From Marsupella aquatica (taxonomy: Eukaryota; Plantae; Marchantiophyta), in the NCBI GenBank assembly GCA_973895155.1, contig OZ316897.1, forward strand, positions 1,328,515 through 1,392,514: DNA of 64,000 bases, written 5' to 3'. Position numbers and translations under genes: made by a program. The notes beneath the pieces were generated by a model. That model saw only the letters and a program-made list of their open reading frames with translations. It did no database searches and had not been told where the DNA came from. Positions 10,648-56,335 of this stretch are shown piece by piece; the first letter of the stretch is position 1; every line of letters begins with the position of its first letter.

Positions 10648-10661
10648 TCGTGCTGATAACG
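10648..10661 (-). promoter_or_regulatory. Primer binding site complementary to the anticodon arm (5' half) of tRNA-Ile
   Basis: The plus strand reads TCGTGCTGATAACG, matching the plant tRNA-Ile(AAU) anticodon arm TCGTGCTAATAACG (recalled) with G at the inosine wobble position. There is no TGG start, so it is not a 3'-CCA-type PBS. Confidence 0.75.
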
Positions 10662-17550: not shown

Positions 17551-17664
17551 ATGATCGACGATCAGGACTTGGGCTTCTTCGCCAACTTTTTGGGGATCTC
17601 CATATTTGTGTTGGTGGTGGCATACCACTACGTGGTAGCGGACCCCAAATTTGATACTCAATGA
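17551..17664 (+). CDS. OST4: Oligosaccharyltransferase subunit 4 (37 aa)
   Basis: Translates [37 protein letters not shown], closely matching plant OST4. The ATG lies directly after the AG of a 5'-UTR intron (GTAAGT donor ~16952). Confidence 0.93.
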
Positions 17665-18751
17665 TGGCTGCTTTTACGAGTGGGTGTCATGGACATCCAC
17701 GCCAAGATTTTGTTCATGGACCGGTACTCTGTATCGGATTGATGATGTATTCCAATCTGATAGCTAAATAAAGATGACGGCATCATCTGCCAACAATTTG
17801 AATGACCTAACTACTTGAAGCCTCGGATCGTGTCATAGTAAGCCGTAGTTCGACATCAGGCCCGACATTCTTATCTTGACTATCATGCAGTTGAGAGGCT
17901 CAGAGAAGCACATTTTGTGGTTTGCCCGTTAGTTTAGTCGCTCTCAATACACGAATACTATCGAGGGGGACCATCGAGGCAGGAGGATGTAGTTAAGGCT
18001 CCAAGCGCAGTCGAAACAGGTGTGCGAAGCAATGGAGAAAGGCCAGATCACGGACCACCATCTGAGCCACACGGTCTCAAGATCGCCTAAGCCGTTAGCT
18101 TGTGAAATCCACCCGAGCAGAATTAGTAAGGGTTTTGGGTTTTTGATTTCCGTGGGTGCTTGTAGCTGCTGACGAACCCTCTCGACCCCGTGAAGACTAT
18201 CGAGATTCAGCATTACAATGCTACAGGTTTCTGCGAATTGTGGATAATCTTGTCAATCTGGCTGCGGCAGCGACGGTAGTCAAGTCATGGACCCCGCAGT
18301 ACTGACCGTGAGAGCGATGTACGCGCCTGTCAAGAAGGGCCCAGTCATCCCTGGCGTCCTTGTGATGGTCTCCGCCTCTCCGTTCCTCTTTCTCTCTTCC
18401 TCCCTCTGTGTGTGTCTCCCTCTCCTACGTTGCTGGTCCTGTGGTCCTTTGGGCTCCTCGTCGACTTTGAATCCCAGTCATTCATACCTTCGTTCTATTC
18501 ATTCGTGCTGCTATTCTCACTTCAATAACCTCTCTGTGACTTCCAGTCATTCTGTTGAATTCCTTCAAACTCTAGACGGTCATGGACTCAAGCAATTTCC
18601 CGCTCCAATCCTTCACTCGAACAACCAGAATCTATCTAGGATCTAGGAGCTGTTTAGTTCATGATTCCTGGCTCAGATGTGCTGCCAGCCTTCTCCCTCT
18701 TGATACTCTCACTTTCCTTACTTGTCTGGGGTTTTTTGGACTCTGAAATTT

Positions 18752-18843
18752 ATGGTCAAGGGATACGTGCAAAACGGGTACCGAATGTTTGAAATGATGG
18801 TGGAGGGATATAATCGGAGCCCGTACTCATGACTGTGTTCTTT
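18752..18843 (+). pseudogene. TFB1: Frameshifted copy of TFB1 exon 1
   Basis: Homologous to 37999-38094 (-) with indels (ATGGTCAAGGG vs ATGGTCGAAGGG); the donor GTGCAT is retained. Confidence 0.8.
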
Positions 18844-19088
18844 GTGCATTGACAATGGTAGCGATTCCCTTGACGAGATAATAGAGCCTCATAATTAAGG
18901 TTTTTGAAACAGATGGACTTGCATTGAAAGAAAGAACGGTGGTTACGCTAACTCGTAACTTCTGTATAGAAACCTTCTCAGTCCTTGAGAATTTTGGTAC
19001 TGATCGATGAAAGGTGTTTTCAATTATCTATTTTCTGAGTGCCTAACCTGTACTTGACTTCTTGGTATCCCGTGCGGACGTTGGACAG

Positions 19089-23127: not shown

Positions 23128-25744
23128 TCACTTGTAATCATGCCCGGCATGTTCAGGTCTATGTGAGACCTCGTAGTCAAGGTGGACAAAAGCACGCTCG
23201 ATATCAGGTAAGGATTCCAGCTTGTTCTGTAGGGACTCCCCGATATCATGTGCTTCCTCTAAAGTCATGTCTCTAGGCAGAACAATGTCCACCTCTGCAA
23301 AATAATGCTCTCCAAATGTATATGCTCGAACTGTATCTATTTGGCGAATGTGTTTGTGATGGTTCCAACACAGGTAGGTCAGTTTCTTCAGGTAGTCCGG
23401 ACTTGCAGTCTTACTCGCCAAAGAATTCACATTCTTCTTCACGGCCATTGACCATGTTCGTATTGTGTACAGAGCCAGCTGCATAACGACACAAGCAAAT
23501 GACAATCACTTAGGGAAAATTTTCTCACTCCCTTCAGCTCAAAGAACTTGGAATTGATCTATCTTCCACTGGAAGCAATAGGTAATCCACACATGGGTAC
23601 ATACACACGAAGCGCACCAGCTGAACATGGGAACAAGACAAACTCGCAACGCTTCTGATCCAAGTCAATGCCAGGATCGGAGACTTACCAAAATAGCTCC
23701 CACGGGATCAATCCACCAGCCAAAGAGGGACGCCAAAAGGGCTGCTAGAAGACCGATCACATTGGTGACAACATCAAAGAAGTGATCAAGGGCATATGTT
23801 CTGACAATCTCATTATCAAACAGTCGACAATACAACATGAGACACAGCTTCACTACTGATGCTCCCGCCATGATTCCCACCACCCAAAATCGTTTGGACC
23901 CACGAAGATCAAAAGAGTGATCCTGTAAACAATCATGAGACCCAACGTACAGATAAGTAATAGACCTACAGGAGAGCAACACGAAAGATACTAAGATGCT
24001 ATTAGGAGCTTTGTTCTTTGTTTGCAAAGAAGGACAAGCAGCACTTAGCATCTACCCAGACAGTCAAGAGCAGCATCGATGACCAACAATGACAACGATG
24101 CAGCGCTCCTTCAGGCAAGTCAGCTAACACCTACTTTTGATCGAACTTCTAACATGTAAACCAAGCCAAAAAACCGTCAGAAAATGGAGAGTTCCGGTAC
24201 TTGCCGCGGATACGAGTCTTTTAAGAGATTCATAGATAATCAGTAGACCCAATGTCGCCATAACGGATGCAAAAACCAGAATACCCTGCTCAATGTGTCA
24301 AAACCAGGATGTTACATTAATTAGAAACTAGAACTGCAACTCCTGGTTACAGACTCTACAAAATATTTTACTGGATCGAATGAAACCGTCGCAGATTATA
24401 GGCATAGGGTTACAGGGACAAGTTAGGATATGCAGTCTTTCTGATCGAAGCATGACTCCCTGTCTAGGAAACCCCTAGTACGGAGAGACCTATCATATGC
24501 CTTTCAAGTAACGCCACAGCAGCTAACAGCAATAGGGTTGCCCGTTCTCTTGAAGAAGAAAATCTAGCCTTAGCCTTTCTGAAACAACTGAACATTGACT
24601 GCCAGGACCTGTGCGCTCCTTTTCACAGGGAGAGTATGTTTGAGCGGCAATCAATGTCTATGCTGAATCAATAAACGCGGTCCATGACCAAAAAACTATG
24701 GCATTTAGCAACTTTGAAGGTGAAATGGTTAGAAGAACGTACGATTGGTTGCATCCTGTTCTTGCCGATTGGATACAGATACGGGTTGGGTCTTCTTATC
24801 GAGTGAGACGTGAACCATAGAATGAAGCCTGATAGGAGATCCATGAAGGAATCTAGGGTAGAAGCCAAGATGGCCAGAGATCCACTCTTGACGGATGCAA
24901 ATAGTTTTGCTGCAAACAGTATAAGGTTGACTACATTGGAAATTCGAATCGCACGAACTTCTCCCCTTTCGATTTTTGCCCTTTCGTCCTGCGGTGTTGA
25001 GGAGCAAATTTGCAAAAGGACCGATTAGCTTTATTTGACCTTAATGGAGGGCGGTGTCAATCTGTTGATAATGCAGACGACTCCACAATATTCTACGACA
25101 TTTTACGTCTGTGAGTAAAATTATTGGGGTTGAAATCCGGAATTTCTGAGCTCAAAGACTACTCGATTTGGTCCACACTCATTTCTGTGAACTTCTTCCG
25201 CGTATTTCTTCACTTTCATGCACCTAAGCTTACCTTACCATAGTTGTGGTAGGCCGGTATCCATGCTCTGTGATGTCGTCCATCTCTTTGTACGTATCCA
25301 GCATTTCGTCTTGGTGCCGATAATATTTAGCAACTCCATTGTCAAATCCTGCAAACACATGACATCAGCTTATTACATGCTCGCAATTATATATCATCGC
25401 AAATTGATTCGCAAACCTATATATTGGCTACTCATTAGAAACAGAAACGGCAAGAAGGTATTCTCTGTGAAGCCCAACACTTTATTTACAGAAATTATCA
25501 AATTGGCAAATCATGAACACGGAGTGTGTAGGCATTGGCAGGACGCACCGAACACTTTGAGGCATTTATGTAGGCTCGCTTGCAAAGAATCTGGAGAGTT
25601 TTCGGACATTCTTTCACGGGGGAATCTGTTGTAATTGAGACGCCACGTGAGATCATCTGTCCTGCCGCTGGTCCAGCCCAGCGACTCGTCCTGGATCTCC
25701 TCGCCTGCCCTCCCATCTGACCCTAAGGCCTCCATGTCGGCCAT
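23128..25744 (-). CDS. MTP: Metal tolerance protein, Mn-CDF family (MTP8/MTP9-11 group), 6 exons
   Basis: [77 protein letters not shown]; DxxxD/DxxxD Mn-type motifs. Confidence 0.95.
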
Positions 25745-27169
25745 CACAACAGTAACTCCAGTAGTCCCTTGCCCAGATTTGCCTGTCTGTGCGTCTTTGT
25801 AAAAAGTTGAGACTCAGATCGTTCTTTGTGTCCTAATCGACGCCTTCGATTATAAGGTTACTCACGAATTTTATGATCTAAACGATCAGTCATTCCTGAC
25901 AGGTGCGACCTCCATTTGAAATGTTCACTTCCAATTCAAAGGCAAGTGCACTGAAGAGTGATCGCTACAGGGGCCCGTTGTTCAGGACCGATTTCCCATT
26001 CGGATCCGATTCGGAGGCTCAATGTGATCTCTGGAAGGCTCCTTTGCTTGTCCGATCTCCAATTCAAAGGCTCCTTCCACTTGCATGAATACCCCACTCG
26101 ACGGCCTTCAGACGGATGTCAGCACAACTTCTTCTGCTCCTCGGAAAGACGCACGTCATCGCCTTGCACTCGATCCAGGAATTGATTGGATGCCACGTAC
26201 ATCGGAATCAGACGTCACCTGGGATCGGATACCACCTGCAAAACGAATGACATGGCCGATCAGATCAACAATAAAATACCGCACCACGACATCATGAGCA
26301 GGATTGGCACGGTAGTGTCTGTACAGTACTAATAATAATGAGAAAAATTAATTGTTTCTAGCAGATTATTTTGCAGTACTCCGACAGTCAAAACGGATTC
26401 ACGTTCGTGGCGAGATAATTGTTTCTCGCAGATTATTTTGCAGTACTCCGACAGTCAAAACGGATTCACGTTCGTGGCGAGATTCTGTCTTCTGGGGCAA
26501 GCCTTTCATTCAGGATTAGTAGGGCGTATGCTGCACGCATTGCTGATTCATCCAATGTTTTCGTTTCAGTTTTCCGACAGCAGAATCTTGTACCTATCCA
26601 CAGAGTGTGGTTCATTAAGAATTAGGCAAGTGAATAAGATGCAATTTAATGGGTCCTACAAAACAATGGCCGATGATGACCTTTTGAGAGGCGTGAGAAC
26701 ACTGAACGAGAAGAAGGCTCAAGCAGTCACGTGCATCCCCCGCTCAAGCAACTCGTTTAACTCCTAACATACAGTAGTAGTCACCGCGTTGTGCTGGAGC
26801 AACTTTTTCTAAATCCCGTCAATCCCGTCCTGGTGCACGCCGACCTTTGCTTCTCCTGCGTTTCGTCTCCAAATCATGCGAGCTGCTTGAATTCTTTCAG
26901 TGTGGGTGCTCTTGAAGTACTGGAGTGAAGTTTTCTCATGGCAAAACCAAAGGGAAGGAATCAGCAGGATTTGAGACAATCACCGAGACATTTGAATTCG
27001 AAGACAGGCTCTATTTTCAACCGATTGATTCGATAATCAACCGAATGACATCACCGATCAGACCACTCCAGTACTCTAAATGAACTGGAATGAAGTTCTT
27101 CTCATGGCAAAACCGAAAGGCTTGAATCAGGAAACTTTGCGCACTTCGCAGGTACTACTCCCGACTGTC

Positions 27170-27385
27170 ATCTACAATACGATTCGCTTCGTGATCTCGT
27201 GAGGTAATTGCAATTCTGTGCATCCTGTCTTCTAGAAATCGATTCGCTTTGTGATTCCGCGTGGGCTACTGTACTATTCTCTACATCCTGTCTTCTAGAA
27301 ATCGATTCGTTTCGTGATCCTCGCGCAACTGAAGGCTTAGTTTGCAATTCTGTACATCATGTCTACTAAAATCGATTCGTTTCAT
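27170..27385. repeat. ~60-bp tandem repeat x4 (core CTAGAAATCGATTCG.TT.GTGAT)
   Basis: Visible units; the inverted paralogue at ~48365-48517 has about 3 units and abuts the copia insertion. Confidence 0.7.
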
Positions 27386-27911
27386 CAGCAGAGCTCTCGC
27401 TTCGTCGTTGGCTGGCATCATGCAGAGCCAAGCTTCTGTAGCAACCCAGCAGATCTCATACACTCCCCTCTTCCCTCGAATTTCCCCGAACACAACTCGA
27501 AGATGAAGAATTTTGGGTCCTGTGACAACAAACATATATGAATTGGAACCCTGGGTCTATTTTCATTTTTTATACTCCCACTCATATATCAAGAGGGCCT
27601 ATATTCATTTTTATACTTGCACTCATATATCAAAGTGTAAAAAAACAAAAGGAGCCCCAACCACACAGGCCAAAGACCCAATCAAGGGGTGAAGGCAAGG
27701 AGCGAAATGAGCTATGTACACATCATTGTTGGGCATGGCTGATGAAATAACTGTGACAACAAGATTGAACACCACTGGAAAATGTTACATCGTGAATTCA
27801 GGGAGCTCTTTCAAATTTAACTAAAATAAAAGTTTAAAGACACCATGGCTAACTCACCCTCACTCAACAAGAGTGTGGTCCATAAGTCGTGCTCGAAGTC
27901 ATGCGGCTAAT

Positions 27912-28995
27912 TTAGATTGCTGCTAGTTCTTGCGGTCCTCTGATCTCCTGGTGTTGTTCCGATCTCTTGTGCGCATGCGATTTGATGGGCAATGTTGTGG
28001 GTGACAAGAGGAAACATTGTCGAACTATGTAGTGCAAAAAGCAATACACTTCAAGAACTTCTTCCTCCTTGTATGCCAAAATATCCAGCAGATACACTTT
28101 ACTGACCCAAAGTCGCCCATCATGATCAATGGAGATGAATTTCCAGACTGATGCATTGGAGAAGGTCCCCCACACCATGCAATTGGGTCTCCTCTCTCGG
28201 TGAAGACATGCTGTCCGGCGTAGCACTGCCAAATGGCCACATTGTCCCAGGAACAGCTTCCCCCTACTGCTATGAGATGGGAATCACTGGGTTGTGAGTA
28301 GTCCTTGATGCCCCTCCCTCCAACATGTCCAATCAGGTAATCAAGAACACCGCTGAGCTTGCAGTCCTGGCCGTCCATCAATCCTGGACCAGACTCCATC
28401 TTCACTTCACAAAAGATGCGCAGCTTAGACTCAAACTCAGCCTGGCTAATAACATCTTGTAGGAAAAGATCTAGGATAGTGCGCAGACTGGCCTCGGAGT
28501 TCATTGACCAAACTCTAGACTTCTGAATGACAAAGGACATGAAGCACTGAGAAGGGCGAATGTTGTTGTCAAAATCATCAACAATCCACGTTTTCTCAGT
28601 ACATATGACACCTGCGATGCCTGCAATTTGATGTAAATTGGCTTCAGTGAAACTCACACTCCATGTTTTGGTCGGGCTAATGGTTTTGAGGAAATCGAAC
28701 CCCTGTTCCAACGTCTGAATCTGCCATTGATGCAGCTGGATCCGGCTTTCAAACCGCGAGAGCTGCCTTTGGAGATCTTGGAAGCGCTCATTCTCAATGC
28801 ATTCGAGCTCAGTCTTCTCTTCATCTGTAGAGTTGTTCTTGATCCTTAGCTGTACTGGAGCGATGTGTTGATTTCTATTTCAATGCGCCCAATTTTGTCG
28901 TGAAGTGAGTTGATGCATCTGTTGATGAGCGTGATTTGTTCATAAGCGACCAACATTCTACCTTGCAAATCCTCAGGCTTAAAAGAGCCCTCCAT
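27912..28995 (-). pseudogene. Frameshifted copy of the coiled-coil + PD-(D/E)XK-like gene
   Basis: Three ORF pieces (28846-29082, 28025-28711, 27912-28232) align to the 46273-47463 protein; small deletions cause the frameshifts. Confidence 0.9.
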
Positions 28996-31124
28996 TTTAC
29001 CGTGACGTCCAGTCCTAGCAGAGCCAAAATTGAGACAAGCGAATGCGACAGCAAGAGGTAGAGAATCTGCAATCTGTTTCACAGTGCAAAATTGTCAACA
29101 TAGGGCCACTTTGGTACCGACACCTAACCTATTCCGTTCAACTTTACTATGAAACTTAATCCAGTGGAACTGGACCGTTAAACCTTCCACCAACGGATCA
29201 AGTGATCTACCCGAGTGATCTACCCGAGTTAGATTGCTGACCTTGAACAAACAGATAAGCAGCTCGGAAAGCAGCTCCTAGTTTCGAATTGGCAACAGCA
29301 AACACACTCAAACCGACGACAGTTGAATTGCTCTTATTGTATATTCTTGTATATCGAAGAAGCAAAGAAAGACATAGCCGAACAGGCAGAGGTTGGAAAA
29401 TAACGACGAGTGTTGGGCTCTGCCGTGTGCGTGGGTTGCTTCGACCTCAACACACGGTTCCAACGTCGTTTTGTGACACACAAGAGGAGACCTTCACTCA
29501 TTCGTCCAATTCGTCCAACATGATTGACATGACCAGTGAGGATATGAATTCACAAATAGGGGATACTTTTTGACTTCTGACGGAGAGAGAGTAAAAATTC
29601 CAGTAGAAGACCTTTGTTCCCCTTGCAAGCTATTGGCACCCGACACTTTGGTAGGTTTCCCACGGGAAAGGCAAACATCTTTTGGAGAGAAAAAGAAAAT
29701 TCTATGAATACAAAAAATATGTCGGGCGATGCAAAGAATATACAATGGGCGACAAACATAAATAAAGTTTAAATGATGGCTAAAAAGAAGCATTGTGATA
29801 TAGGGTTGAATCACCTTAAACAACAAGTATCTGCACTCACAAATGGAAAATGAAACACCTCACCTTCAAAAACACGAAAGATGGAAGGGGGTGGGCAAGG
29901 GTTAAACTTGGCCCCATAAACTTGACCAAAACCTAACAGAGAAACAAAAGATAACACCGCCCCCATCCCTCCAACATTATTAAAAAATAGGAAAACAAAG
30001 TGACTAAAATTAAAATTAAACTAATCAAAATAATATATGTATGCTCCTTATCATAAACCTCCCATCTAGGCTTTTGTAGGTGTCTCCTATGTAGTAAAGT
30101 ATAGGCGTATAGGTATAAGTGTATCACCTCTATCATCATATTTTGATAAATCAATTTATTATTGTATGATATAATTCATACATGTAATGAACTCTAATAA
30201 CCTATGGTACATAGCTCCCCTCATCAGATAATATGACGTTCAACGGCACCCCATTGTACACAATCCAATGGTGACAAAAAAGGCCCAAAATGTCTTTAGT
30301 GGCCATTTTTATTCACTGGCTTCACATATCATAGAAGTAGATTGAGAGACCTACAAATTACCAAGGATGTCTATCTCCTTTTTTCGTTGGCCTCATCAAT
30401 GCTAGATATACTCTGCAGAAAAAGAGGGTTTGGCTGACTTCCATCCGAACTGCAAAAAATCTATCAGAGCATTTTGGCTAACATGGAGGTCCATCTTGGT
30501 TTCAATTTCCATTCACCCTCTTCGTTTGAGTTTCGAGTTTGTCCTCGCTGGCCCTCCTCAAGTTTGACTGGGTTGTACGGTGTTTGGCACTTGTTAATAA
30601 ATTAGTCTTTTTGGTTGTTCGAATGAAGATAAGAGGCATAGAGAGGACGATTTGACCAGATCACCACATGATATTTAATCAACCTTAGTCCTTTGTGTTG
30701 ATTACTCATCTTTTCTGCCTCAATTGCAGAGTGATTTCTATGGATAGGCATACCCCAAGATAAAACCATAGCCCAATGCCATGAATTGTGTTCAAAGCTC
30801 TAAAATACAGAATCACAATTTGGCAATAGATCCTACATCCCACTTCACAGACCCAATGCGAGGTATAGGCGGGTCAAGTATAACGAGTTGAAGTGTACTC
30901 CTGAACTCCTAATGTGCTCCAAGTCGTTCGCTTCTCTCGTAGACTAAAGATGCAGGCCCTAAAAGTGAAATTTCTCCACCCAGTGCCCATAAGATACGAT
31001 CAAGTATCATGACACAAAAATGAGGACAAAACTTCGGCTCTGAAATTTCAACCTTGTATGTTGCACATCTGTGTTTGGGAGGTACACAACTTAGCCCCGC
31101 CCATATTCCCAAGAGAACTGTAAC

Positions 31125-37100: not shown

Positions 37101-38094
37101 AGTGTCAAGTATTCTAGGCTGCATATCAGAGAGAAAACGTAAGAACTTATTTGGTCCCAGAAAACGAGGGGCGCTGCTCTTAAACAATACAATCCAAAGA
37201 GAGTCCTGTCAATGGGTTCTGAAACAGGACTCACCAACGTGGTCCCGGCAAATATCTCTGTCCGGAAAACCATCAAATTCAAAGACGAAACCATCAGCCT
37301 GCAAACATGAACAAGGACGAGTACCATCACGCCTAAGCACATTAGGTTCCCAACTGACGACATATAATCAAATCAGACCAACAAAGGGTGAAGTTACGAC
37401 AGTCCGTCTTCGTGGCACAATTTTAGAAGTTTTAGCAATCCGTACGGCAGGCTTGCCAAGTTGCTTGCATACCTTCGCATCTCCGCCTTTTGACAAATTT
37501 AACAGTGCCTTCTTGGTACCCTTGTTGAAGAAATGAGCTGGCACAAGCACTTCTACATTGTAAGAAACCATAAAGCACATCTCACTTTGCAGAGTCTGGT
37601 GAACGAACAGTATCTAATATACTCTCAAGCTAAACCCTAAACCCTTGTCATCCCCTGCTGAAGAAGCAAGAGAGGGTCAGCAATTAGAGCACTATGCTGG
37701 CAATCCAAAAACAAGTGCCACGAGGAGCAGATTCAAAATCTCCTTTCCAATGCTAAATCTGCATATCACCTTTGATTATTAAAAAAGGATGATCCACCGG
37801 AGTCGATATTTTTGGATCATTAGACATCCATTTGAATCGTGTCTCCGTCTGGAAAGACCATATCACAATCAGAAACAATACTGCATCGCCCCATGTGCCA
37901 AAAGTTCCTTTCTTTCAATGCAAGTCCATCTGTTTTCAACACCTTAATTATGAGGCTCTACTATCTCGTCAAGGGAATCGCTACCATTGTCAATGCACAA
38001 AGAACACAGTCATGGGTACGGGCACCGATTTCTTCTTATATCCCTCCACCATTATTTCATTCGGTACCCGTTTTGCACGTATCCCTTCGACCAT
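31125..38094 (-). CDS. TFB1: General transcription and DNA repair factor IIH subunit TFB1 (p62/GTF2H1), multi-exon
   Basis: Exon peptides MVEGIRAK..., TETRFKWMSNDP, HFFNKGTKKALLNL (PH domain), EMERRMKLLQTD/ELQKLHSQLVIGGVLSEADFWNARK and MTEVEFWTKYCRAEYL (BSD domains), DPRKYFESQQ, last exon ALDTAFAHYEE...VTA*. Confidence 0.92.
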
Positions 38095-39986
38095 AAATTT
38101 CCTAGACAAGTAAGGAAACTGAGAGTATCAAGAGGGAGAAGGCTGGCAGCACATCTCAGCCAGGAATCATGAACTAAACAGCTCCTAGACCTAGTTAGAT
38201 CCTGGTTGTTCGAGTGAAGGATTGGAGCGGGAAATGCATGAGTCCATGAACGTCCAAAAGTTTGAAGGAATTCAACAGAATGACTGGAAGACACAGAGAG
38301 GTTATTGAAGTGAGAATAGCAGCACGAATGAAAAGAACGAAGGCATGAATGAATGGGATTCAAAGTCGACGAGGAGCCCAAAGGACCACAAGACCAGCAA
38401 TGTAGGAGAGGGAGACAGACACAGAGGGAGGAAGAGAGAAAGAGGAACGGAGAGGCGGAGAGGCGGAGACCATCATAAGGACGCCAGGGATGACTGGGCC
38501 CTTCTTGACAGGCGCGTACTTCGCTCTCACGGTCAGCACTGCGGGGTCCATGACTTATCGCCGTCGCTGCCGCAGCCAGATTGACAAGATTATCCACAAT
38601 TCGCAGAAACCTGTAGCATTGTAATGCTGAATCTCGATAGTCTTCACGGGGTCGAGAGGGTTCGTCAGCAGCTACAAGCACCCACGAAAATCAAAAACCC
38701 AAAACCCTTACTAATTCTGCTCGGGTGGATTTCACAAGCTAACGGCTTAGGCGATCTTGAGACCGTGTGGCTCAGATGGTGGCCCGTGATCTGGCCTTTC
38801 TCCATTGCTTCGCACACCTGTTTCGACTGCGCTTGGAGCCTTAACTACATCCTCCTGCCTCGATGGTCCCCCTCGATAGTATTCGTGTATTGAGAGCGAC
38901 TAAACTAACGGGCAAACCACAAAATGTGCTTCTCTGAGCCTCTCAACTGCATGATAGTCAATATAAGAATGTCGGGCCTGATGTCGAACTACGGCTTACT
39001 ATGACACGATCCGAGGCTTCAAGTAGTTAGGTCATTCAAATTGTTGGCAGATGATGCCGTCATCTTTATTTAGCTATCAGATTGGAATACATCATCAATC
39101 CGATACAGAGTACCGGTCCATGAACAAAATCTTGGCGTGGATGTCCATGACACCCACTCGTAAAAGCATCCATCATTGAGTATCAAATTGGGGGTCCGCT
39201 ACCACGTAGTGGTAAGCCACCACCAACACAAATATGGAGATCCCCAAAAAGTTGGCGAAGAAGCCCAAGTCCTGATCGTCGATCATCTGCGAAAAATATC
39301 CGATACATCACTTATCAGGAACAGCACTGCAAGAAGAAAGGAACATAGAACGCAGCTGTGAAGAAACAACAAATCAGTAAGGGGAAAAGATCGCGGAACA
39401 GGGAACAGCGTCTAAAACTGCTAGGCTCCAGAACTCTTCTCCGAATTTTTCGTGAAGTTCTAAGCCCTACTCGACCTGTTCCAAAGTAAAGTCCAATCGG
39501 GGGATTGCTCTGAAACAGCACGACCTAGCAACCCGAAGAATTGCGAAAACCGATACCAAACGAAGCAAACCGAGGATGAAGGAATTCCAAATCCAATTGG
39601 ACCCAAGAGAGGTGGCTGAAAGACAGCAAAAAGCAGCACATGCCAATGCCAGGACATGACTAAACCATAGCAGAACCTGATTCACAAAACATCGAACCCG
39701 CAATTCATTCACTCGTTCTCGTTCACAACAGCAGAGATGAATTCCACCAGAACCCTGTCCCGATCACTGGGAATTGAGGGACAATACAGACGCGTGACTG
39801 ACACAGAAAAAGAGATATCTGGACCAAAAAAAACAGAAGAGGAAGAAGAGATGACCTCCAAGAATGAATCTGAGAGAAGGAGACTTACATTGCTGGGCGG
39901 GGAGGGGAAGAGCAAGGTGGATTGCAGACCAACGTTCGTTCCTTCCTTCTTGAGTTTCTCTCCCTTCGTCTTGCCGATCTGGGAAT
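37904..39986 (-). repeat. Segmental duplication A' (source copy; contiguous with intact TFB1)
   Basis: Inverted match to 16856-18937. Confidence 0.95.
39173..39286 (-). CDS. OST4: Oligosaccharyltransferase subunit 4 (37 aa), second copy
   Basis: [37 protein letters not shown]; one amino-acid difference (K/Q) from 17551-17664. Confidence 0.93.
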
Positions 39987-45396: not shown

Positions 45397-46359
45397 AGTT
45401 GTCCCCGCAACGATCGGAAAAACGTATGAAGGGGATACGTGCAAACGAACCGGACGCTATATCGGTGTTCGCTTCTATTCTGGTGTATTCACTGCTATTT
45501 CGATGCGTCTGTCCCTCTTATTGCTGCTCCGTGCTCAGTGCTGATTTGGCCCTGGATTTGATTTCAGCCTCGGTGTTTGATGCTCAGAGTTTTTGCAGGT
45601 GGGCGCTACTGGGCTGTTGCTCGATGCTAGTTGTGCTGTCTTCTGCTGGATTCTGTAAGGGGCCCTCTATGCTGTTTACTCGTGCTATTCTCGCTTCTGC
45701 TCACTTCTTGCGGCGGCCCTCTATGCTGTTTACTCGTGCTATTCTCGCTGCTGCTCTCTGTGGGCTCGTTGCTCGCTGTCAGTTAGGAATTTTTACTCTC
45801 TCTCCGTCAGAAGTCAAAAACTATCCGCTATTCGTGAATTCATATCCTCACGGGTCATGTCAATCATGTTGGACAAATGAATGTGTCATCTTGTGTGCCA
45901 CAAAACGACGTTGGAACCGAGCGTTAGGTCGAACCGAAGGTTGAGGTCGAGGCAACCACGCACACGGCAGAGCCTAACACTCGTCGTTATTTTCCAACCT
46001 CTGCCTGTTCGGCTATGTCTTTCGTTGCTTCTTCGACATACAAGAAGAGCAATTCAATTGTCGTCGGTTTGCTTGTGTTTGCTGTTGCCAATTAGAAACT
46101 AGGACCTGCTTATCTGTTTGTTCAAGGTCAGCAATCTAACTCCGGTATATCGCTTGATCTGTTTGTGGAAGGTTTCACGGTCCAGTTCCACTGGATTAAG
46201 TTTCATAGTAAAGTTGAACGGAATAGGTTAGGTGTTGGTACCAAAGTGGCCCTCTGTTGACAGTTTTGCACGGTGAAACAGATTGCAGATTCTCTATCTC
46301 CAGCTGTCTCATTCGCTTGTCTCAATTTTGGCTCTGCTAGGGCTGGGCGTCACGGTAAA

Positions 46360-47463
46360 ATGGAGGGCTCTGTTAAGCCCAAGGATTTGCAAGGTAGAAT
46401 GTTGGTCGCTTATGAACAAATGACGCTCTACAACAGACACATCAACTCTCTTCACGACGAAATTGGGCACATCGAAATAGAAATTAGCACATCTCTCCAG
46501 AGGAAATTACAGCTGAGGATCAAGAGCAACTCTACAGATGAAGAGAAGACTGAGCTCGAACGCATTGAGAATAAGCGCTTCCAAAATCTCCAAAGGCAGC
46601 TCTTGCGGTGTGAAAGCCAGATCCAGCTGCATCAATGGCAGATCCAGATGTTGGAACAGCAGCTCGATTTCCTCAAAACAATTAGCCCGGCCAAAACACG
46701 GAGTGTGAGTTTCAGTGAAGCCGATTTACATCAAATTGCAGGCATCACAGGTGTCATATTTACCGAGGAAACGTGGATTGTTGATGATTTTGACAACAAC
46801 GTTTGCCCTTCTCAGTGCTTCATGTCCTTCTTGATTCAGAAGTCTAGAGTTTGGTCAATGAACTCCGAGGCGAGTCTACGCACTGTCCTAGATGTTTTCC
46901 TACAAGATGTTATTAGCCAGGCTGAGTTCGAGTCTAAGCTGCGCATCTTCTGTGAAGTGAAAATGGAGTCTGGTCCAGGATTGATGGACGGCCAGGACTG
47001 CAAGCTCAGCGGTGTTCTTGATTACCTGATTGGACATGTTGGAGGGAGGGGCATCAAGGACTACTCACAACCCAGTGATTCCCATCTCATAGCAGTAGGG
47101 GGAAGGTGTTCATGGGACAATGTGGCCATTTGGCAGTGCTATGCCGGAGCAGCATGTCTTCACCGAGAGAGGAGAGATGCACGCAAACCCAATTGCAGGG
47201 TGTGGGGGATCTTCTCCAATGCATCATTCTGGAAATTCATCTTCATTGACCATGATGGACGACTTCGGGTCAGTAAAGTGTATGTGCTTGATATTTCGGC
47301 ATACAAGGAGGAAGAAGTTCTTGAAGTGTATCGCTTTTTGCACTACATAGTTCGACAATGTTTCCTCTCGTCACCCACAACATTGCCCATCAAGTCGTAT
47401 GTGCACAAGAGATCAGAACAACACCAGGAGATTAGAGGACAGCAAGAACTAGCAGTAATCTAA
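46360..47463 (+). CDS. Intronless coiled-coil + restriction-endonuclease-like (PD-(D/E)XK, Crinkler-type REase) protein, ~367 aa, probably catalytically impaired
   Basis: N-terminal heptad-rich region, then NSEASLRTVLDVFL, IFCE, LSGVLDY, LIAVGGR (position of VEAK), WQCYA, VWGIFSNASFWKFIFIDHDG. The pattern is typical of fungal/oomycete REase-fold proteins (recognised by eye; no HMM run). Confidence 0.7.
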   Translation: MEGSVKPKDLQGRMLVAYEQMTLYNRHINSLHDEIGHIEIEISTSLQRKLQLRIKSNSTDEEKTELERIENKRFQNLQRQLLRCESQIQLHQWQIQMLEQQLDFLKTISPAKTRSVSFSEADLHQIAGITGVIFTEETWIVDDFDNNVCPSQCFMSFLIQKSRVWSMNSEASLRTVLDVFLQDVISQAEFESKLRIFCEVKMESGPGLMDGQDCKLSGVLDYLIGHVGGRGIKDYSQPSDSHLIAVGGRCSWDNVAIWQCYAGAACLHRERRDARKPNCRVWGIFSNASFWKFIFIDHDGRLRVSKVYVLDISAYKEEEVLEVYRFLHYIVRQCFLSSPTTLPIKSYVHKRSEQHQEIRGQQELAVI

Positions 47464-47679
47464 ATTAGCCGTAGGACTTATGTACCACACTCTTGTTGAG
47501 TGAGTGAGTCAAAGTTTAAAGAGCTCCCTGAATTCATGATATACCATTTTCCAGTGGTGTTCAATTTGTTGTCACCTCCCTGGTCCCTGGGACTATTTGG
47601 CTCCTTGGCTTTCGCTCCTTGCCTTCCCCCCTTGATTGGGTCGTTTGGCTTGTGTGATTGGGGCTCCTTGTGTTTTTGA

Positions 47680-48185
47680 GTGCAAGTATAAAAATGAATA
47701 TTGATCCTCATGATATGTATGAGTACAAGTATAAAACATGAAGTTGATATATGAATATAAGTATAAAAAATGAATGATGATATATGACTGCAAATATAAA
47801 GAATAAAATTGATATATGAATTATGAATGTAAGTATAAAAAAAGAATAAAGTTGATATATGAAAGCAAGTATAAAAAAAATGAATAATGATATATGAGGG
47901 TAAAGAATGAAGATGATATATGAATGCAAATATAAAAAATAAATATTGATTATTGATATATGAGTGTAAATTGATATATGAGTGTAAATATAAAAAATGA
48001 AATTGATACATGATTGCAAATATAAAAAATGAATATTGATTTGTTGATATATGAATGTCATATAAAAAATGAATATTGATTTGTTGATATATAAATATAA
48101 ATATAAAGTTCATATATGAGTGCAAGTATAAAGTTATATATGAGTGCGAGTATAAAGTTCATATATGAGTGCAAGTATAAAAATT
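47680..48185. repeat. AT-rich degenerate tandem repeat (TATATGA.TG(C/T)AA(G/A)TATAAA units)
   Basis: ~500-bp array; only 2-3 units at the paralogous site ~27560-27635. Confidence 0.85.
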
Positions 48186-48783
48186 GAAAATAGACCCTTT
48201 GTTCCAATTCAAATATGTTTCTTGGCACAAGACCCAAAATTCTTCATTTTCGAAGAGTATTCGAGGGAATTCGAGGGAAGAAGGGAGTGTAGAGATCTGC
48301 TGGGTGCTACAGATGCTTGGCTTTCTGCATGCTGCCAGCCAACGACGAAGCGAGAGCTCTGCTCATGAAACGAATCGATTTCTAGAAGACAGGATGTAGA
48401 GAATTGCAAACTAACCCACGCGAGATCACAAAGCGAATCGATTTCTAAAAGACAGGATGCACAGAATTGCAAACTTACCCTCACGAGATCACGAAGCGAA
48501 TCGTATTGTAGAGGACATGTTAAGTTTACGACGTTCATCCGGTGTACATACGCCACTTGCTGTTCCTTTGTCTGTTCCCCTTTCGCTTAGGTGTTATCTG
48601 GGGGGGCCTGTATATGTGTGATTACCGTTAGATCTAGGGCTAATCTTACTTACGGTCCGATTAGTATTCACTGATCTGGTGCGGTGCATTCTCTCGCCGA
48701 CCACTCTCTTAAGGTCCAATTCACTGTTCATTCTGTATTCTTGCTGTGTAAATTATGGGAAGCTGCGCTCGTCAGTTTCTTCA

Positions 48784-48795
48784 TGGTATCAGAGC
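48784..48795 (+). promoter_or_regulatory. Primer binding site, tRNA-iMet
   Basis: TGGTATCAGAGC immediately after the 5' LTR. Confidence 0.95.
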
Positions 48796-48844
48796 ACAGA
48801 CTGCCAGAGCACGATCGTGGTGAGAATCTCCCAGCGTTACTCGC

Positions 48845-51800
48845 ATGCTGAGCAGAATGGCTGGCGGCCCACAGCGATCATCACAGAGCAGCGGCTCCCA
48901 AGCTGCCTCACTAGGTAGCAGCACACAGCAAGCATCGCCAAGCACTGGACCTCCTGCAGCTCAGAATGTCCACTACGAGTTTGACAAAGGCCTTGTCTAT
49001 GTAGACAAGGACAAGCTCGATGGCAGTAAGAATTTCATCGGGTGGTCCTTCAAGGTGGAGCGACAATTCCGCAAGGATAAAGTGTGGTTCGAGCTGGTCA
49101 GTCCAGACCCCACAAAGCCAATGCAACTCACGCCAGAGCAAATCGAAGAAAAGAAGGAAAGAGCAATCTACATCTTCTCTCAGACGGTCAAGGATCACAT
49201 CTTCCCTATCGTGAAGAAGTACATTGACGATCCAGCCAAGATATGGCTGCAGCTGAAATCGCGTTTTGAATCCGCGGCCATGGGTAAGCAGCTCATCCTC
49301 AGGGATAAACTGTCTAAGATGCACATGTCCGAAGGGAGTAGTGTTGAGGAATACATTCGTGAGATTGACAACTTGGTGATGCAGCTAGGTGACATCAATT
49401 TTGTTATAGAAGATAAGGAACTAATCCGCACCACTCTCAAAGGATTACCTGCGAGCTGGAAGCCATTTATCATGTCGTTTGGTACCTTGCTGCATCAGTT
49501 CCCGACACTGTCATTCTCAGACCTTATTGGTCACCTTGAGGCCGAAGAAATGCAACAGGCTTTACAGAGCAACGACACCGAAGAAGCACTGATGACTAGC
49601 TACAACACCCAGCGTGGTGGCCCTTTTCGTGGACGTGGCAGAGGCAGAAACAACTATCGTGGACGGGGACGAAGCGCACCTTCTTTAGCCAGGAAGACCG
49701 AAGCCTGCAATTTCTGTGGGCATATGGGTCACTGGGAAGGGGAATGCCTCAAGAAGATTGAGAGCCAAATCAAGGGCCTACAAATCAAGCATGCGGACAT
49801 TAAGAAGGGCATGCACCATGCAAACGTGGCTGAGACGGTGGAACCTGAAGAATGTGAGTCTGACAGCGATCCCGACAGAAGCATCTTAGAAGTTAATCTC
49901 ACATAATTCAAAGCTAGTCAAGATTGGCTAGTTGATTCAGGTGCTAGTACTCATGTAACTGGGAACAATAGTACTCTTAGTCATGTTGTTCCATACGCAT
50001 CCACCTCCAATGTAACTACTGCCTCTGGTGCACGCATTCCAGTTGCTGGAAGAGGCAGCACTAAGTTCAATGGAAATAAAGTGGTCAAAAAGGTTTTGTA
50101 CGTTCCTGGTATGACTCGCAATCTCTTGTCAGTTGGTCAGTTGGCTGATGAAGGCCACAATGTATTATTTAATTCCCGTCATTGCTACGTGTTGGATAAA
50201 GAAGATCCTAATAAGATCTTTCTGAGGGCAACAAGGGATAGACACAATAGTCTATACCGACTAGACTCGTCTATCCAGGGCAATGCCAAGCTGTGCTCTG
50301 AAATACACATTTCATTAGTAGACAGCACGGACGAGCATGCCAGCAGTCCTCCATCCAACACACCTACGAGCAATGATGACAGTGAGACACAAAGCGATGT
50401 GTCACCTCTTGAGCTATGGCACCGAAGGCTCAGTCACGTGAACTTCCGCAGAGTTTACAACATGTCTTCAAACGAGTTGGTTGAAGGTCTGCCCAAGCTG
50501 CCATTGGAGGATCATGTCTGTGATACATGCATCATGGGGAAACAACATCGAGAGCGCATACCCAAGAAATCTGCCAACAGGTCAACCAAACCACTGCAAT
50601 TGGTTCATACGGATCTCTGTGGCCCCTTCATTGTTTCATCTCTTTCTAAAGCAAAATATTTGCTTACATTCACGGATGATTTCTCTCGCTACACATGGGT
50701 GTATTTCCTGAAAGCCAAAAGTGAAGCCTTGTTAAAGTTCAAAGACTTTAAAGCTATGGTCGAAAATGAATTCGACAGCAAAATTCAATGTGTTCGATCA
50801 GATCGAGGAGGTGAATACTTGTCCAACGAATTCTGCCAATTTTGCGACAGACAAGGGATCAAGAGGCAACTCACAGCGGCTCGCACACCTCAGCAAAATG
50901 GAGTAGCAGAAAGGAAAAACCGAACACTGCTCGAAGCAGCACGCAGCGCCCACATTGCGAGTGGAGCTCCCATGTTCCTATGGGATGAGCTCATTCAATC
51001 AGCCACGTATGTGCTCAACAGGTGTGACACTTCCTCTTTGACCTCCTCCACACCTTTCCAGCAATTATACAATGCCAAGCCTGACCTGTCTAGTCTAAGA
51101 ATTATTGGATGCCTGGCGTACGTTCATGTTCCTAGTGAACTGAGACATAAACTGTCAGCAAAGTCCATTCGGACTGCATTGGTGGGATATGACGAGAAAT
51201 CGAAAGCATACAGATGCTATGATCCTATCAAAAGAAAAATCTACATCAGTCGTGATGTTGTGTTCAATGAGTTAAAGATGTTTGACTTCAACATCAAACC
51301 ATCTCAAGCCACTGCAGAATTACCATTGATTTCACCGGCTCAGTCCATTTATATCTCTCCTGCAACATAGGAACAAAATTCCTACTCTGCATCCGAACCT
51401 GCATCTCCTGACTCTGTGCCTGTAGATCCTAGTAATAGTACTGACTCCAACTTAGAGCCACTTGAGCCAGTTGATTCTTCTCTTGAAGTTGAGCCCGCAC
51501 CAGCTGACTCTACCCCTACGAGCACATTACCATTGCCATCCCCAATTCGCAGGCAGTCATCTCGTGCAAGGGAACTCCCAGTTCGTCTACGCCAAGATTA
51601 CGTGTTGGATTTTCGACCCAGCAACCCTGATGTCTGCCTAGTCGAGACTACCGACCCTGTGAATGAAAACATCTCATTCCAGCAAGCCCGTTTGGACCCT
51701 CAGTGGAATGCAGCTATGAAAGTAGAATTTGATTCTCTGATCGAAAATGAGACATGGGTCCTCACTGCACTCCCACCAGGAAAGAGGGCCATCTCTGCTA

Positions 51801-53314
51801 GGTGGCTGTACAGGGCAAAGCCAGAAGTAAACCCCACTCGCACTCGACTGAAAGCTCGCCTGGTGGCTCGTGGTATTGAACAGCGCTTTGGAGTTGATTT
51901 TGAGGACACTTTCGCACCGGTTGTCAAGTGGTCAACCATTAGACTGGTTATTGCACTCGCTGCAACTCTTGGCTGGTCCATCAGCCAAATGGATGTCATC
52001 ACGGCTTTCTTGAATGGCAAGCTCAAGGAACTAATCTACATGGTGCAACCACCAGGATTTGAGGTCCCAGGATCCGAACACCTTGTGTGCCAGCTAAATC
52101 GATCCATCTATGGCTTAAAGCAGTCCCCGCGTGCATGGTATGAGGAAGTTGATCGGTTCCTTCGCTCAAAAGGGTGGACCCGGAGCACTGCTGATCATAA
52201 TTTGTACTTCATCAACTAAGGAGGGAAAATTGTTCTTCTACTTATTTTCGTTGATGACCTACTCATCACTGGCAATGACGATGCCAAAATTGATGAGGTC
52301 AAAGCACAACTCAGCCAACAGTACAAAATGAAGGATCTGGGCAAAGTCACCAGGTATTTGGGAATAGATTTTGTAGATGTGGCCGATGGAATGTTCATCC
52401 ATCAACGTGACTACTGCCAAAGCTTTCTGGAGGAATTTGAAATGCAAGACTGCAAAGGAGCAGCGACTCCTCTACCCGAAGGATTTGATGTATCGGCTGA
52501 TACGCTATCACCTGACGTGGATGCCACTCACTACTGCAAGTTAGTTGGCAAGTTGATCTACTTAACTAACACCAGACCGGATTTGGCATATGCAGTGGGG
52601 ATTCTCAGCAGATTTATGTCATCTCCACAACAAAAACACATGGATGCTGCAAGGCACGTCCTCAGATACATCAAATCCACCATTGATTTCGGCTTACTCT
52701 TCCAGAGAACTGGAACTTTGTCTCTCTCGGGCTACACTGACTCAGACCATGCTGCTTGCAAAGACACTCGAAGATCCATTGGGGCCTATGTGTTCCAATT
52801 TGCTGGGGGCACTGTTACTTGGGCGAGCAAACGACAAGCAACGGTCTCACAGAGTACAACTGAGGCTGAGTACAGAGCCCTATCGGAAGGAGCTCGAGAA
52901 GCTGTCTTCCTTAGGCGTCTGCTCTCAGAGTTGAGCTTCATCCCAGAAATTCGGGTGGCATTGAATTGCCAAAATCAGGAGGTGATTTCAAATCTGTCAG
53001 TGGCCAGTCAACCCACCTTGCAAGATGCTCATCTAAACCTACATTGCGACAACCAAGCCTCAATTAATTTGGCGAAGAACCCCATCTTCCATGCTCGGAC
53101 CAAGCACATCGAACTCCAGCACCATTACATCAGGGAAAGAGTCCTGGAAGGAGAAGTGACGCTTAAGTACATTCCCACTGCAGAGCAACCTGCAGATATC
53201 CTTACAAAATCCCTTCCAAGATGGAAGTTTGAGAAACATCGTGAATTCCTTGGCATGAAGTCCCTGCGCGACATTCTACCTACCCTGGGTAACGCAGCTA
53301 CTCGGGATGCGTAG
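48845..53314 (+). pseudogene. Copia gag-pol in one reading frame with three in-frame stops (49904 TAA, 51368 TAG, 52217 TAA)
   Basis: CNFCGHMGHWEGEC, WLVDSGAS, LWHRRLSH..CDTC, HTDLCG/SDRGGE/NGVAE, KARLVARG, FVDD, YTDSD/TEAEY/CDNQ/ADILTK. Confidence 0.93.
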
Positions 53315-53759
53315 CATCGTGATATACCTCTAAGCAGTATTCACATCTATATAGCTGACCACCAAAATTGCCTTGCCCCATGCTTCGAAATCGGTGCCCA
53401 TGGACTGCGTGGTCCCCTGCTCGCTGCAACTTCTCCTGCAAGTATCGTTCTGCCTCGCTTCTCGACTTGAAGGACTTGTACACCTGACCCTTATACCCCT
53501 TTACTTGTGGCTCACAGTCCTCCCAGGAATCATACAAGCCTGGAACATATCCCCGCACCACTGCATAGTACTTTCGCCTTGTGGTATGGTCACTGAAGTA
53601 GCGGGATGTTGGCACAACTGGCTGTATCGTGTGCTGTGCACCCTGTACATCAGGCGCTCGGGTGACTTTCACCATTACCTGTTTGCCCTGCTCCCCTATC
53701 TGTGGCTCGTCCTCTCTCTCGCCCTGGTGCTCTTCTACCTCAGTCGCACTCACATTCAA
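53298..53759 (-). CDS. Antisense accessory ORF with an RNase H1 N-terminal (hybrid-binding)/caulimovirus viroplasmin domain; first ATG at 53675 (125 aa)
   Basis: KYYAVVRGYVPGLYDSWEDCEPQVKGYKGQVYKSFKSRSEAERYL (53439-53573) matches the Cauli_VI consensus YYAV..G..PG.Y..W..C...V.G......K.F....EA..(Y/F); C-terminal H..H.HRF...YRCEYC. Confidence 0.85.
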   Translation of the reverse strand: MNVSATEVEEHQGEREDEPQIGEQGKQVMVKVTRAPDVQGAQHTIQPVVPTSRYFSDHTTRRKYYAVVRGYVPGLYDSWEDCEPQVKGYKGQVYKSFKSRSEAERYLQEKLQRAGDHAVHGHRFRSMGQGNFGGQLYRCEYCLEVYHDATHPE

Positions 53760-55581
53760 CTTCCATTGTACATACTGGAATTTGAGTCTCGACCATATCT
53801 CCCAGCACCTTGAGTACCAACCTTATCGTACCCAACAACACCCAGAGCACTTGCAGGCCCACTCTGCTTACGTCCATTCTCCCCACTTGCTCTGTGCATT
53901 TGATGGATTACCGGTCGGGAGGGGGTGTTAAGTTTACGACGTTCATCCGGTGTACATACGCCACTTGCTGTTCCTTTGTCTGTTCCCCCTTTGCTTAGGT
54001 GTTATCTGGGGGGGCCTGTATATGTGTGATTACCGTTAGATCTAGGGTTAATCTTACTTACGGTCCGATTAGTATTCACTGATCTGGTGCGGTGCATTCT
54101 CTCGCCGACCACTCTCTTAAGGTCCAATTCACTGTTCATTCTGTATTCTTGCTGTGTAAATTATGGGAAGCTGCGCTCGTCAGTTTCTTCAGACAGTCGG
54201 GAGTACCTGCGAAGTGGGCAAAGTTTGCTGATTCAAGCCTTTCGGTTTTGCCATGAGAAGAACTTCATTGCAGTTCTTTTAGAGTACTGGAGTGGTATTT
54301 TCTAGTTGGTCTGATCGGTGATGTCATTCGGTTGATTATCGAATCAATCGGTTGAAAATAGAGCTTTTGTTCGAATTCAAATGTCTCGGTGATTGTCTCA
54401 AATCCTTGCTGATTCCTGCCTTTTGGTCTTGCCATGAGAAAAACTTCACTCCAGTACTTCAAGAGCACCCACACTGAAAGAATTCAAGCAGCTCGCATGA
54501 TTTGGAGACGAAACGCAGAAGAAGCAAAGGTCGGCGTGCACCAGGGCAACGCGGTGACTACTACTGTATGTTAGGAGTTAAACGAGTTGCTTGAGCGGGG
54601 GATGCTCGTGAAGGCTTGAGCCTTCTTCTCGTTCAGTGTTCTCACACCTTTCAAAAGGTCATCATCGGCCATTGTTTTGTAGGACCCATTAAATTGCATC
54701 TTAGTCACTTGCCTAATTCTTAATGGACCACACTCTGTGGATAGGTATAAGATTCTTCTGCTGTCGGAAAACTGAAACGAAAACATTGGATGAATCAGCA
54801 ATGCGTGCAGCATACGCCCTACTAATCCCTGAATGAAAGGCTTGCCCCAGAAGACAGCCTACTAATCCCGGAATCCCCAGAAGACAGAAGCTCGCGACGA
54901 ACGTGACTCCGTGTTGACTGTTGTCTGTTGTAGTACTTCAAAATAATCTGCGAGAAACAATTAATTTTTCTCATAATTATTAGTACTGTACAGACTCTTC
55001 TGTTGGTCATGATGTTTGGTGGCGGTATTTTCTTGTTGATCTGATCGGTGATGTCATTCGTTTTGCAGGTGGTATCCGATCCCAGGCGACGTCTGATTCC
55101 GATATAGTGGCATCCGATCAATTCCTGGATCGAGTGCAAGGCGATGACGTGTGCGTCGTCTTTCCAAGGAGCAGAAGAAGTTGTGCTGACATCCGTCTGA
55201 AGGCCGTTGAATGGGGTATTCATGCAAGTGGAAGGAGCCTTTGAATTGGAGATCGGACAAGCAAAGGAGCCCTCCAGAGATCACATTGAGCCTCCGAATC
55301 GGATCCGAATGGGAAATCGGTACTGAATGACGGGCCCCTGTAGCGATCACTCTCCAGTGCACTTGCCTTTGAATTGGAAGTGAACATTTCAAATGGAGGT
55401 CGTACCTGTCAGGAAGGACTGATCGTTTAGATCATAAAATTCGTGAGTGAGCTTATAATCGAAGGCGTAGATTAGGACACAAAGAACGATCTGAGTCTCT
55501 CAACTTTTTACAAGGACTCACAGAGGCAAATCTGGGCAAGGGACTACTGGAGCTACTGTAGTTACTTAGGTGCAGGTCGTT

Positions 55582-56110
55582 ATGATGGCCGACATGGAGG
55601 CCCTAGGGTCAGATGGGAGGGGCAGGCGAGGAGATCCAGGACGAGTCGCTGGGCTGGACCAGCGCCAGGACAGATGATCTCACGTGGCGTCTCAATTACA
55701 ACAGATTCCTCCGTGAAAGAATGTCCGAAAACTCTCCAGACTCTTTTGCAAGCGAGCCTGCATAAATGCCTCATGGTGTTCGGTGCGTCCTGCCAATGCC
55801 TATGCACTCCGTGTTCATGATTTGCCAATTTGATAATTTTGTGTAAATAAAGTGTTGGGTTTGACAGAGAATACCTTCTTGCCGTTTCTGTTTCTGTTGA
55901 GTAGTTGATATATAGGTTGCTATATAGGTTTGCGAATCAATTTGAGATGATAGGTAATTTGCGATGAGCATGTAACAAGCTGATGTCGTGTGTTCTGCAG
56001 GATTTGACAATGGAGTTGCTAAATATTATCGGCACCAAGACGAAATGCTGGATACGTACAAAGAGATGGACGACATCACAGAGCATGGATACCGGCCTAC
56101 CACAACTATG
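55582..56110 (+). pseudogene. MTP: Truncated, frameshifted MTP fragment (exons 1-2 only)
   Basis: Copy of the MTP 5' end with an extra G in exon 1 (GATGGGAGGGGCAGG); the duplication ends in intron 2. Confidence 0.9.
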
Positions 56111-56335
56111 GTAAGGTAAGCTAAGGTGCATGAAAGTGAAGAAATACGCGGAAGAAGTTCACAGAAATGAGTGTGGACCAAGTCGAGTAGTCTTTGAGCT
56201 CAGAAATTCCGGATTTCAACGCCAATAATTTTACTCACAGACGTAAAGTGTCGTGGAGTCGTCTGCACTATCAACAGATTGACACCGCCTTCCCATTAAG
56301 GTCAAATAAAGCTAGTCGGTCCTATATGAATGATA

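Follow-up and report, generated by a model that had tools for sequence, protein, structure and literature searches.

An antisense accessory gene, probably under selection, for an RNase H1-type hybrid-binding domain in a copia retrotransposon of the liverwort Marsupella aquatica

The stretch of DNA analysed here, which we call the window, comprises 64,000 nucleotides of Marsupella aquatica (contig OZ316897.1). At positions 48518-54191 it contains a complete copia element, which encloses an open reading frame (ORF) on the opposite strand. The element is flanked by a 4-bp target-site duplication (TSD; 48514-48517, with the same four bases at 54192-54195) and bounded by two 266-bp long terminal repeats (LTRs) of the TG...CA type, the 5' LTR at 48518-48783 and the 3' LTR at 53926-54191, which differ at three positions (98.9% identity). 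The primer-binding site (PBS; 48784-48795), presumably of the tRNA-Met type, adjoins the 5' LTR, and the polypurine tract (PPT; 53917-53925) is a purine run abutting the 3' LTR. On the plus strand, gag-pol (48824-53314) occupies a single frame in the copia order gag, protease, integrase, reverse transcriptase (RT) and RNase H, with Pfam matches to Retrotran_gag_2, Pol_BBD, gag_pre-integrs, rve, SH3_retrovirus and RVT_2. Ahead of the terminal stop of pol (53312-53314), this frame is interrupted by the three stops of the original prediction (49904, 51368 and 52217). The LTR pair, PBS, PPT, TSD and a domain order with RVT_2 are those of a Ty1/copia element, and the best named relative of its pol comes from another liverwort, Calypogeia fissa (48%).

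The element sits in a repeat of about 4.6 kb, of which the window holds two inverted copies (25017-29601, and 45786-48517 plus 54192-56323) that are 81-92% alike, depending on the piece. The first of these is a paralogous empty site, in which the four bases of the TSD occur once, near 27166-27169, which sets the length of the duplication at 4 bp. The TSD is 5 bp as a rule in plant copia lineages and also in the Bryco elements, which use a half-tRNA-Met PBS (accessible parts of PMC6317226), against 4 bp here. The repeat itself encodes an ORF of 284-400 codons (28028-28879 and 46261-47463) that has no Pfam match and is likely an unrecognised transposon-borne gene, and within it lies an AT-rich, degenerate tandem array with units of about 25-40 bp (47690-48181). 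Elsewhere in the window, we observed a pair of 2.1-kb inverted repeats, 95.7% identical and 19 kb apart (16856-18934 and 37908-39986), and a plus-strand match to glycosyl hydrolase family 31 (20197-20901; E 1.4e-19), which probably represents a host gene exon.

Between pol and the PPT, inside the LTRs, the minus strand is open for 174 codons from stop to stop (53298-53822) and encodes a linker, a hybrid-binding domain and a His/Cys tail. The stop of this frame (53298-53300) lies within the end of pol, so that the two genes overlap tail to tail by 17 nt. Location, orientation and overlap are as originally predicted, but the start assumed there, at TTG 53759, is unlikely. In four of four runs, the main contig of the sister copies is one base shorter than the window at position 53781. 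Directly upstream, in what is a different frame in the window copy, lies a minus-strand piece consisting of an ATG and 32 codons (53782-53877), whose hydrophobic product (best 19-residue mean hydropathy 1.79) is probably the true N-terminal part of the protein. Given this indel, the ATG and the hydropathy, it appears likely that the family gene starts at ATG 53877 and comprises about 192 codons, which compares with 196-232 residues in the longer homologs; the similarity of the upstream piece to the N-termini of these homologs was not significant in N-terminal profile and pairwise tests (best P 0.30). Since the window carries the extra base and the other frame is open from ATG 53877, its copy is frameshifted, a lesion overlooked before. 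Together with the stops in gag-pol, this leaves the window copy dead in both genes. Three stops and a frameshift seem many for an element with LTRs as similar as these; the interior may decay fast, the LTRs may have undergone conversion, or the assembly may contain errors. The original argument that the domain is free of stops, in contrast to the three in gag-pol, is void: at the stop frequency of gag-pol, a stretch of 44 codons would contain only 0.09 stops on average. Because a mere 48 bp separate ATG 53877 from the 3' LTR, the promoter of the antisense gene likely resides in this LTR, on the minus strand of which a simple pattern search yielded no canonical TATA element.

The domain itself (53442-53573, minus strand; ORF residues 84-127) matches the Cauli_VI / RNase H1 hybrid-binding profile (PF01693) at 44 of 44 positions, scoring 68.9 bits against a cut-off of 21 (E 4.4e-19), and no second Pfam family was found in the ORF at E<=1. 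Among solved structures, its closest relative by sequence is yeast RNase H1 (1qhk, E 2.7e-8), followed by the human hybrid-binding domain (HBD; 3bsu, E 0.002). The same fold is predicted in models of homologs, one of which (P0005) superimposes on 3bsu with 0.5 Å over 46 columns; a homolog model also matches 1qhk (Z 5.0, 2.4 Å over 47) and, in a viral structure library, viroplasmin proteins (10 matches at E<=0.001). The family assignment of the original prediction is thereby borne out. The residues by which human HBD contacts the DNA strand are enumerated in the accessible part of PMC9603397. All 11 rows scored share Y29 and W43, and nine have F or Y in the place of F58; the window protein retains Y29, W43, F58 (as Y) and K59, and has S, V and Y in place of K60, R57 and R35. 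As these last three are not kept, its affinity or preference may differ from that of human HBD. A catalytic domain, which in cellular RNase H1 follows the grip domain, is absent, in line with the earlier reading: the Pfam scan returned no RNase H match for the ORF, the scanned homologs or the distant relative L019 described below, and the catalytic motif [YF][TV]DG[SA] occurs in none of 12 family rows, compared with 50 of 155 proteins examined. A predicted complex between the element's RNase H domain and the ORF product, with a score of 0.00, speaks neither for nor against an interaction.

Downstream of the domain, the minus strand encodes a tail with the pattern H-x4-H-x16-C-x2-C (53334-53411), which is predicted to form a helix followed by a hairpin with the CxxC motif and which is a putative zinc site. 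Its ligands would resemble those of a C2H2 finger in permuted order; scores with the Pfam profile zf-H2C2_2 are well under the cut-off (E 0.1-0.4), and a fold search with the tail as part of a longer model gave no clear match among 48,161 chains. The His/Cys cluster noted originally is present and exact in the window and in seven of ten homolog clusters; P0273 lacks the first His and has an extra Cys, and two clusters have no tail. It is not a general feature, as had been overlooked, since it is missing from the distant family of L018 and L019.

Homologs of the ORF product were collected in several searches, one of them represented by the best 150 of 7,961 matches, most of which cover the small domain alone, and fall into at least ten clusters (P0002, P0003, P0128, P0129, P0135, P0144, P0273, P0279, P0280 and P0281). 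Nine of these were compared with the window protein over domain and tail and are 38-64% identical to it, and all nine homologs scanned pass the PF01693 cut-off; the one named homolog among the matches listed is, again, from Calypogeia fissa. In AlphaFold models of P0005 and P0128, the chain begins with a long helix, which a disordered linker connects to the hybrid-binding fold, and the helix with the CxxC hairpin comes last. In four of seven homolog rows, the N-terminal 19-residue hydropathy is high (2.61, 2.54, 2.11 and 1.65), and the three rows below 1.4 are possibly short gene calls. The predicted family protein thus has some 190-230 residues and would consist of a hydrophobic helix, a disordered linker, a hybrid-binding fold and a zinc-like tail. 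A scan of metagenome contigs with the ORF alignment gave 194 pattern matches, none of which was confirmed. Separately, we noted 17 viral contigs (L001-L017) that encode the same small domain with 43-58% identity, mostly as the domain alone.

Evidence that this gene is maintained comes from sister copies, whose contigs represent three subfamilies that are 80-86% alike over their aligned parts. The main contigs of four of four runs span the ORF. In one subfamily, a 767-base contig of about 85% identity leads from the end of pol through the ORF to the PPT region across two joints, so that this subfamily shares the layout. Another pol contig, about 81% alike, diverges after 53276 and ends in 30 loose bases, in which a glutamate codon is followed by a minus-strand stop that overlaps the pol-frame stop by 14 nt; the parallel to the 17-nt overlap in the window is only a hint. 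One further run, X5, which bears the same species label as X2, contains next to none of the sequence words, which is no proof of absence.

Variants were assigned to the subfamilies by contig depth. The lists are partial (one shows 40 of 164 rows, and variants at contig ends are omitted; for the domain region they hold 12 of 16, 9 of 19-20 and 11 of 22 variants per subfamily), and their 40 unique variants fall on codon positions 1, 2 and 3 in the ratio 3/9/28. Among these 40, 24 are synonymous, where 21-30% would be expected (P<=8e-5), which corresponds to a crude omega of 0.18-0.29 from these partial lists and agrees with the purifying selection between sister copies that had been predicted. 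The signal stems from the domain, with 17 of its 25 listed variants synonymous; for the tail alone, the excess is not significant (7 of 15, P 0.13). In one of the three subfamily contigs, the domain is interrupted by a stop. Two sense frames were considered and rejected as the selected gene: the ORF at 53355-53813 has no Pfam match and only 4 of 40 variants are synonymous in it, and the sense frame with common third positions (23 of 40 synonymous) contains, where it crosses the domain, no ORF that reaches 60 codons.

An independent line of evidence is provided by metagenome contigs that were scanned for the RNase H motif of the lineage only, ignoring the ORF. In both loci retrieved in this way, L018 and L019, pol is followed by a Cauli_VI ORF in antisense orientation; the two loci, 86-89% alike, come from a single assembly and were hence counted as one family. 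In L019, the antisense frame has 215 codons, matches Cauli_VI with E 1.1e-10 and ends 18 nt from the pol stop, and in L018 the last 57 codons of the gene are present. Over these 57 codons, 12 of 23 differences between the two loci are synonymous (P 0.01-0.02). The RNase H of L019 is 60% identical to that of the window and groups with it (support 99/93) within a lineage clade of ten RNase H rows (support 98/96), which includes the Calypogeia protein; the tree was built from 35 of 122 rows that we selected ourselves, and P0026 lacks the region. A mark of this lineage is an insert of about 24 residues in RNase H (approximately 52940-53040, plus strand), which increases the spacing between motifs to 54-57 residues in seven lineage rows, compared with 31-33 in most other copia elements. 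We observed that the insert, which is found in the window, P0006-P0013, L018 and L019, precedes the second catalytic aspartate motif and resembles a duplication of that strand and helix.

The lineage may have acquired the domain in a single old capture or in two separate ones. Identity between the domain of L019 and row one of the family alignment is a mere 27%, and L019 lacks the tail; in a tree of 364 short domains, L019 and P0273 do not group with the window family, and the domains are too short to decide their origin. As a control, the window contains a second copia element of a different lineage (4985-10858), which has no hybrid-binding ORF. This minus-strand element is very young, with 200-bp LTRs of 99.5% identity, a single frame of 1575 codons and a 3' region of 508 bp. 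Viral contigs yielded no match to the pol motif of the lineage.

Taken together, the synonymous excess, the sister contigs, the homolog clusters and the two independently retrieved loci make it highly probable that the ORF is a selected, element-borne accessory gene, as originally proposed, and not a one-off capture. The possibility that a host RNase H1 exon came to lie between the LTRs by chance is contradicted by the sister-copy contigs and by the layout of L018 and L019.

What might such a gene do? We tentatively favour a role as a clamp that does not cut, is probably tethered to a membrane and shields the hybrids of reverse transcription from host RNase H. Transcription of the reverse strand would start in the 3' LTR, and the hydrophobic N-terminal helix would tether the protein at the membrane where particles assemble or unpack. 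There, it would grip the RNA:cDNA hybrids of the element in trans, without cutting, and compete with host RNases H1 and H2, so that copying intermediates would be protected. In yeast lacking cellular RNases H1 and H2, Ty1 RNA:cDNA hybrids increase and mobility rises about 12.5-fold (accessible text of PMC4214602); as the cellular enzymes limit hybrids and mobility there, a nuclease-free grip would favour the element. The kept residues Y29 and W43, the absent nuclease motif, the synonymous excess, the linkage to the element and the hydrophobic N-termini speak for this clamp. Against it, reverse transcription proceeds inside particles, possibly out of reach of a membrane-tethered protein, the window protein lacks K60, R57 and R35, some of the ten homolog clusters could be host genes, and the homologous domain of caulimovirus P6 binds double-stranded RNA (dsRNA) as well as hybrids (PMC5902531, in the part accessible).

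This dual specificity in vitro leads to the next reading, in which the protein binds dsRNA, including the duplex of convergent sense and antisense transcripts, and keeps it from Dicer-like enzymes. By their geometry, two tail-to-tail genes in one transcribed unit give rise to complementary RNAs, and the loss of K60, a hybrid-contact lysine, would fit such a target. Yet the original prediction had drawn this role from the analogy to P6 of cauliflower mosaic virus, and it is this analogy that is weakened: according to the accessible passages, P6 suppresses RNAi even without the domain homologous to this one (PMC5902531), and suppression maps to P6 residues 80-110 (PMC5670102). Moreover, a likely membrane tether is ill-suited to silencing at the level of chromatin, and we regard anti-silencing as doubtful.

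Further down the scale, the gene may be a passenger or even a brake, that is, a hitchhiking RNase H1 fragment, a self-limiting copy-number factor, or a member of a host gene family that some elements acquired. The divergent, ungrouped domain of L019 is compatible with separate captures, homologs may lie outside elements, and purifying selection would be expected for a brake just as for an accessory gene. Pure hitchhiking, however, is contradicted by the synonymous excess and by the fixed position of the ORF in families whose RNase H differs by 40%, and as a whole this reading strikes us as improbable. We give equally little credence to a divided RNase H1, whose grip domain, as a separate protein, would make the RT-RNase H more processive or accurate in trans. 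In RNase H1, the domain serves the catalytic domain to which it is linked (bioRxiv 10.1101/572842, accessible part), and the lineage-specific insert in RNase H could be a docking site; but a protein with its own mRNA and a hydrophobic N-terminus has no obvious way into particles, and insert and ORF are seen together in no more than two families among the ten lineage rows.

Slightly less probable still is a scaffold in the manner of P6, which would boost translation and assembly, either through contacts with TOR or ribosomal proteins or as the nucleus of a replication focus at a membrane. TOR, eL18 and eL13 are partners of the same P6 domain (PMC5902531, as far as accessible), and the viroplasmin matches of the homolog model point in this direction, but only the domain of about 50 residues is clearly common to P6, and the closest solved structure by sequence is yeast RNase H1. 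Finally, guidance of the integration complex to R-loops, whose levels shift Ty1 integration in yeast mutants (PMC4214602, accessible part), is very unlikely, given that the protein is not fused to integrase, that its likely N-terminal membrane helix argues against a free nuclear role and that the single insertion seen sits inside another repeat.

Returning to the clamp, the full version of this reading, a liverwort copia lineage with a long-held counter-defence gene whose product is a membrane-tethered, nuclease-free RNase H1 decoy guarding hybrids, is a possibility to which we give less than even weight. If true, no antisense accessory gene of a plant LTR retrotransposon before it would have had a defined substrate, and it would be one instance among several in which unrelated mobile elements, such as caulimoviruses, Helitrons and other copia elements, recruited this domain. 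It would also indicate that the pressure exerted by host RNase H suffices to select for a counter-gene.

What is new is that a copia lineage possesses an antisense accessory ORF whose product contains a hybrid-binding domain; this ORF is real, linked to the lineage and very probably selected. As the original prediction had supposed, we found no copia element with such a gene in print within the full-text literature searched, which largely leaves out subscription journals; the accessible parts of PMC4408406 and PMC6338049 contain nothing on one. The main survey of extra ORFs in plant elements applied a threshold of 250 codons, which would miss the ORF in the window, and pfam01693 is not among the domains seen in at least five elements in the portions of its supplements 4 and 5 at hand (PMC6317226). 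For antisense ORFs behind pol (eORF-3'R) in copia, the same portions give 1%, in SIRE, and the rows for Bianca and Ikeros hold two values in ambiguous columns.

Compared with known systems, the gene combines features of several. It shares with the HBD of RNase H1 (3bsu, 1qhk; PF01693) the full profile, the predicted fold and contacts of the Y29/W43/F58 type, but has a hydrophobic N-terminal helix and, in the window family, a His/Cys tail instead of a catalytic domain, and K60, R57 and R35 are not kept. Like P6/TAV of caulimoviruses, it places the domain in a separate, nuclease-free gene of a reverse-transcribing plant element; P6, however, has 520 residues with several further domains, including self-association, transactivation and RNA-binding regions (PMC5670102, accessible part), whereas the homologs described here do not exceed 232 residues, clearly have only the small domain in common with it and belong to an integrating copia element. 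The Pleurotus ostreatus Helitron gene capE is likewise a pfam01693 gene within a transposon, described as captured cargo of one DNA-transposon copy; the accessible text mentions neither selection on it nor its presence across a lineage (PMC4289320). The env-like ORFs of SIRE and Athila resemble it as extra ORFs behind pol with a hydrophobic segment, but these are in sense orientation, and the texts consulted describe no hybrid-binding domain in any of them.

The closest parallel is offered by the antisense ORFs between pol and the 3' LTR of Ty3/gypsy elements (aORF-3R or eORF-3'R), whose function is unclear (PMC7264820, PMC11963269, in their accessible parts). With Grande gene23, RIRE2, Retand, PvRetro13 and Boty, the gene shares position, orientation and presence across family copies (same sources): it lies antisense between pol and the 3' LTR, is found in the main contigs and shows a synonymous excess. 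Those systems differ in that they belong to Ty3/gypsy, that their 3' regions are long and that their domains are TRP28, SMC-like or unassigned, whereas we describe a copia element with a 3' region of about 600 bp and a domain of known biochemistry; the Retand-type TRP28 (PF04195) had no match in the ORF or the scanned homologs. Antisense accessory genes would thus extend to a copia lineage, at a size under the length threshold of the main survey. Moreover, the function of antisense extra ORFs is considered open partly since their products resemble nothing of known activity (PMC7264820, accessible part), whereas the product described here contains a domain whose complexes with RNA:DNA have been solved and whose contacts are known, which makes the function of an antisense ORF testable by point mutants.
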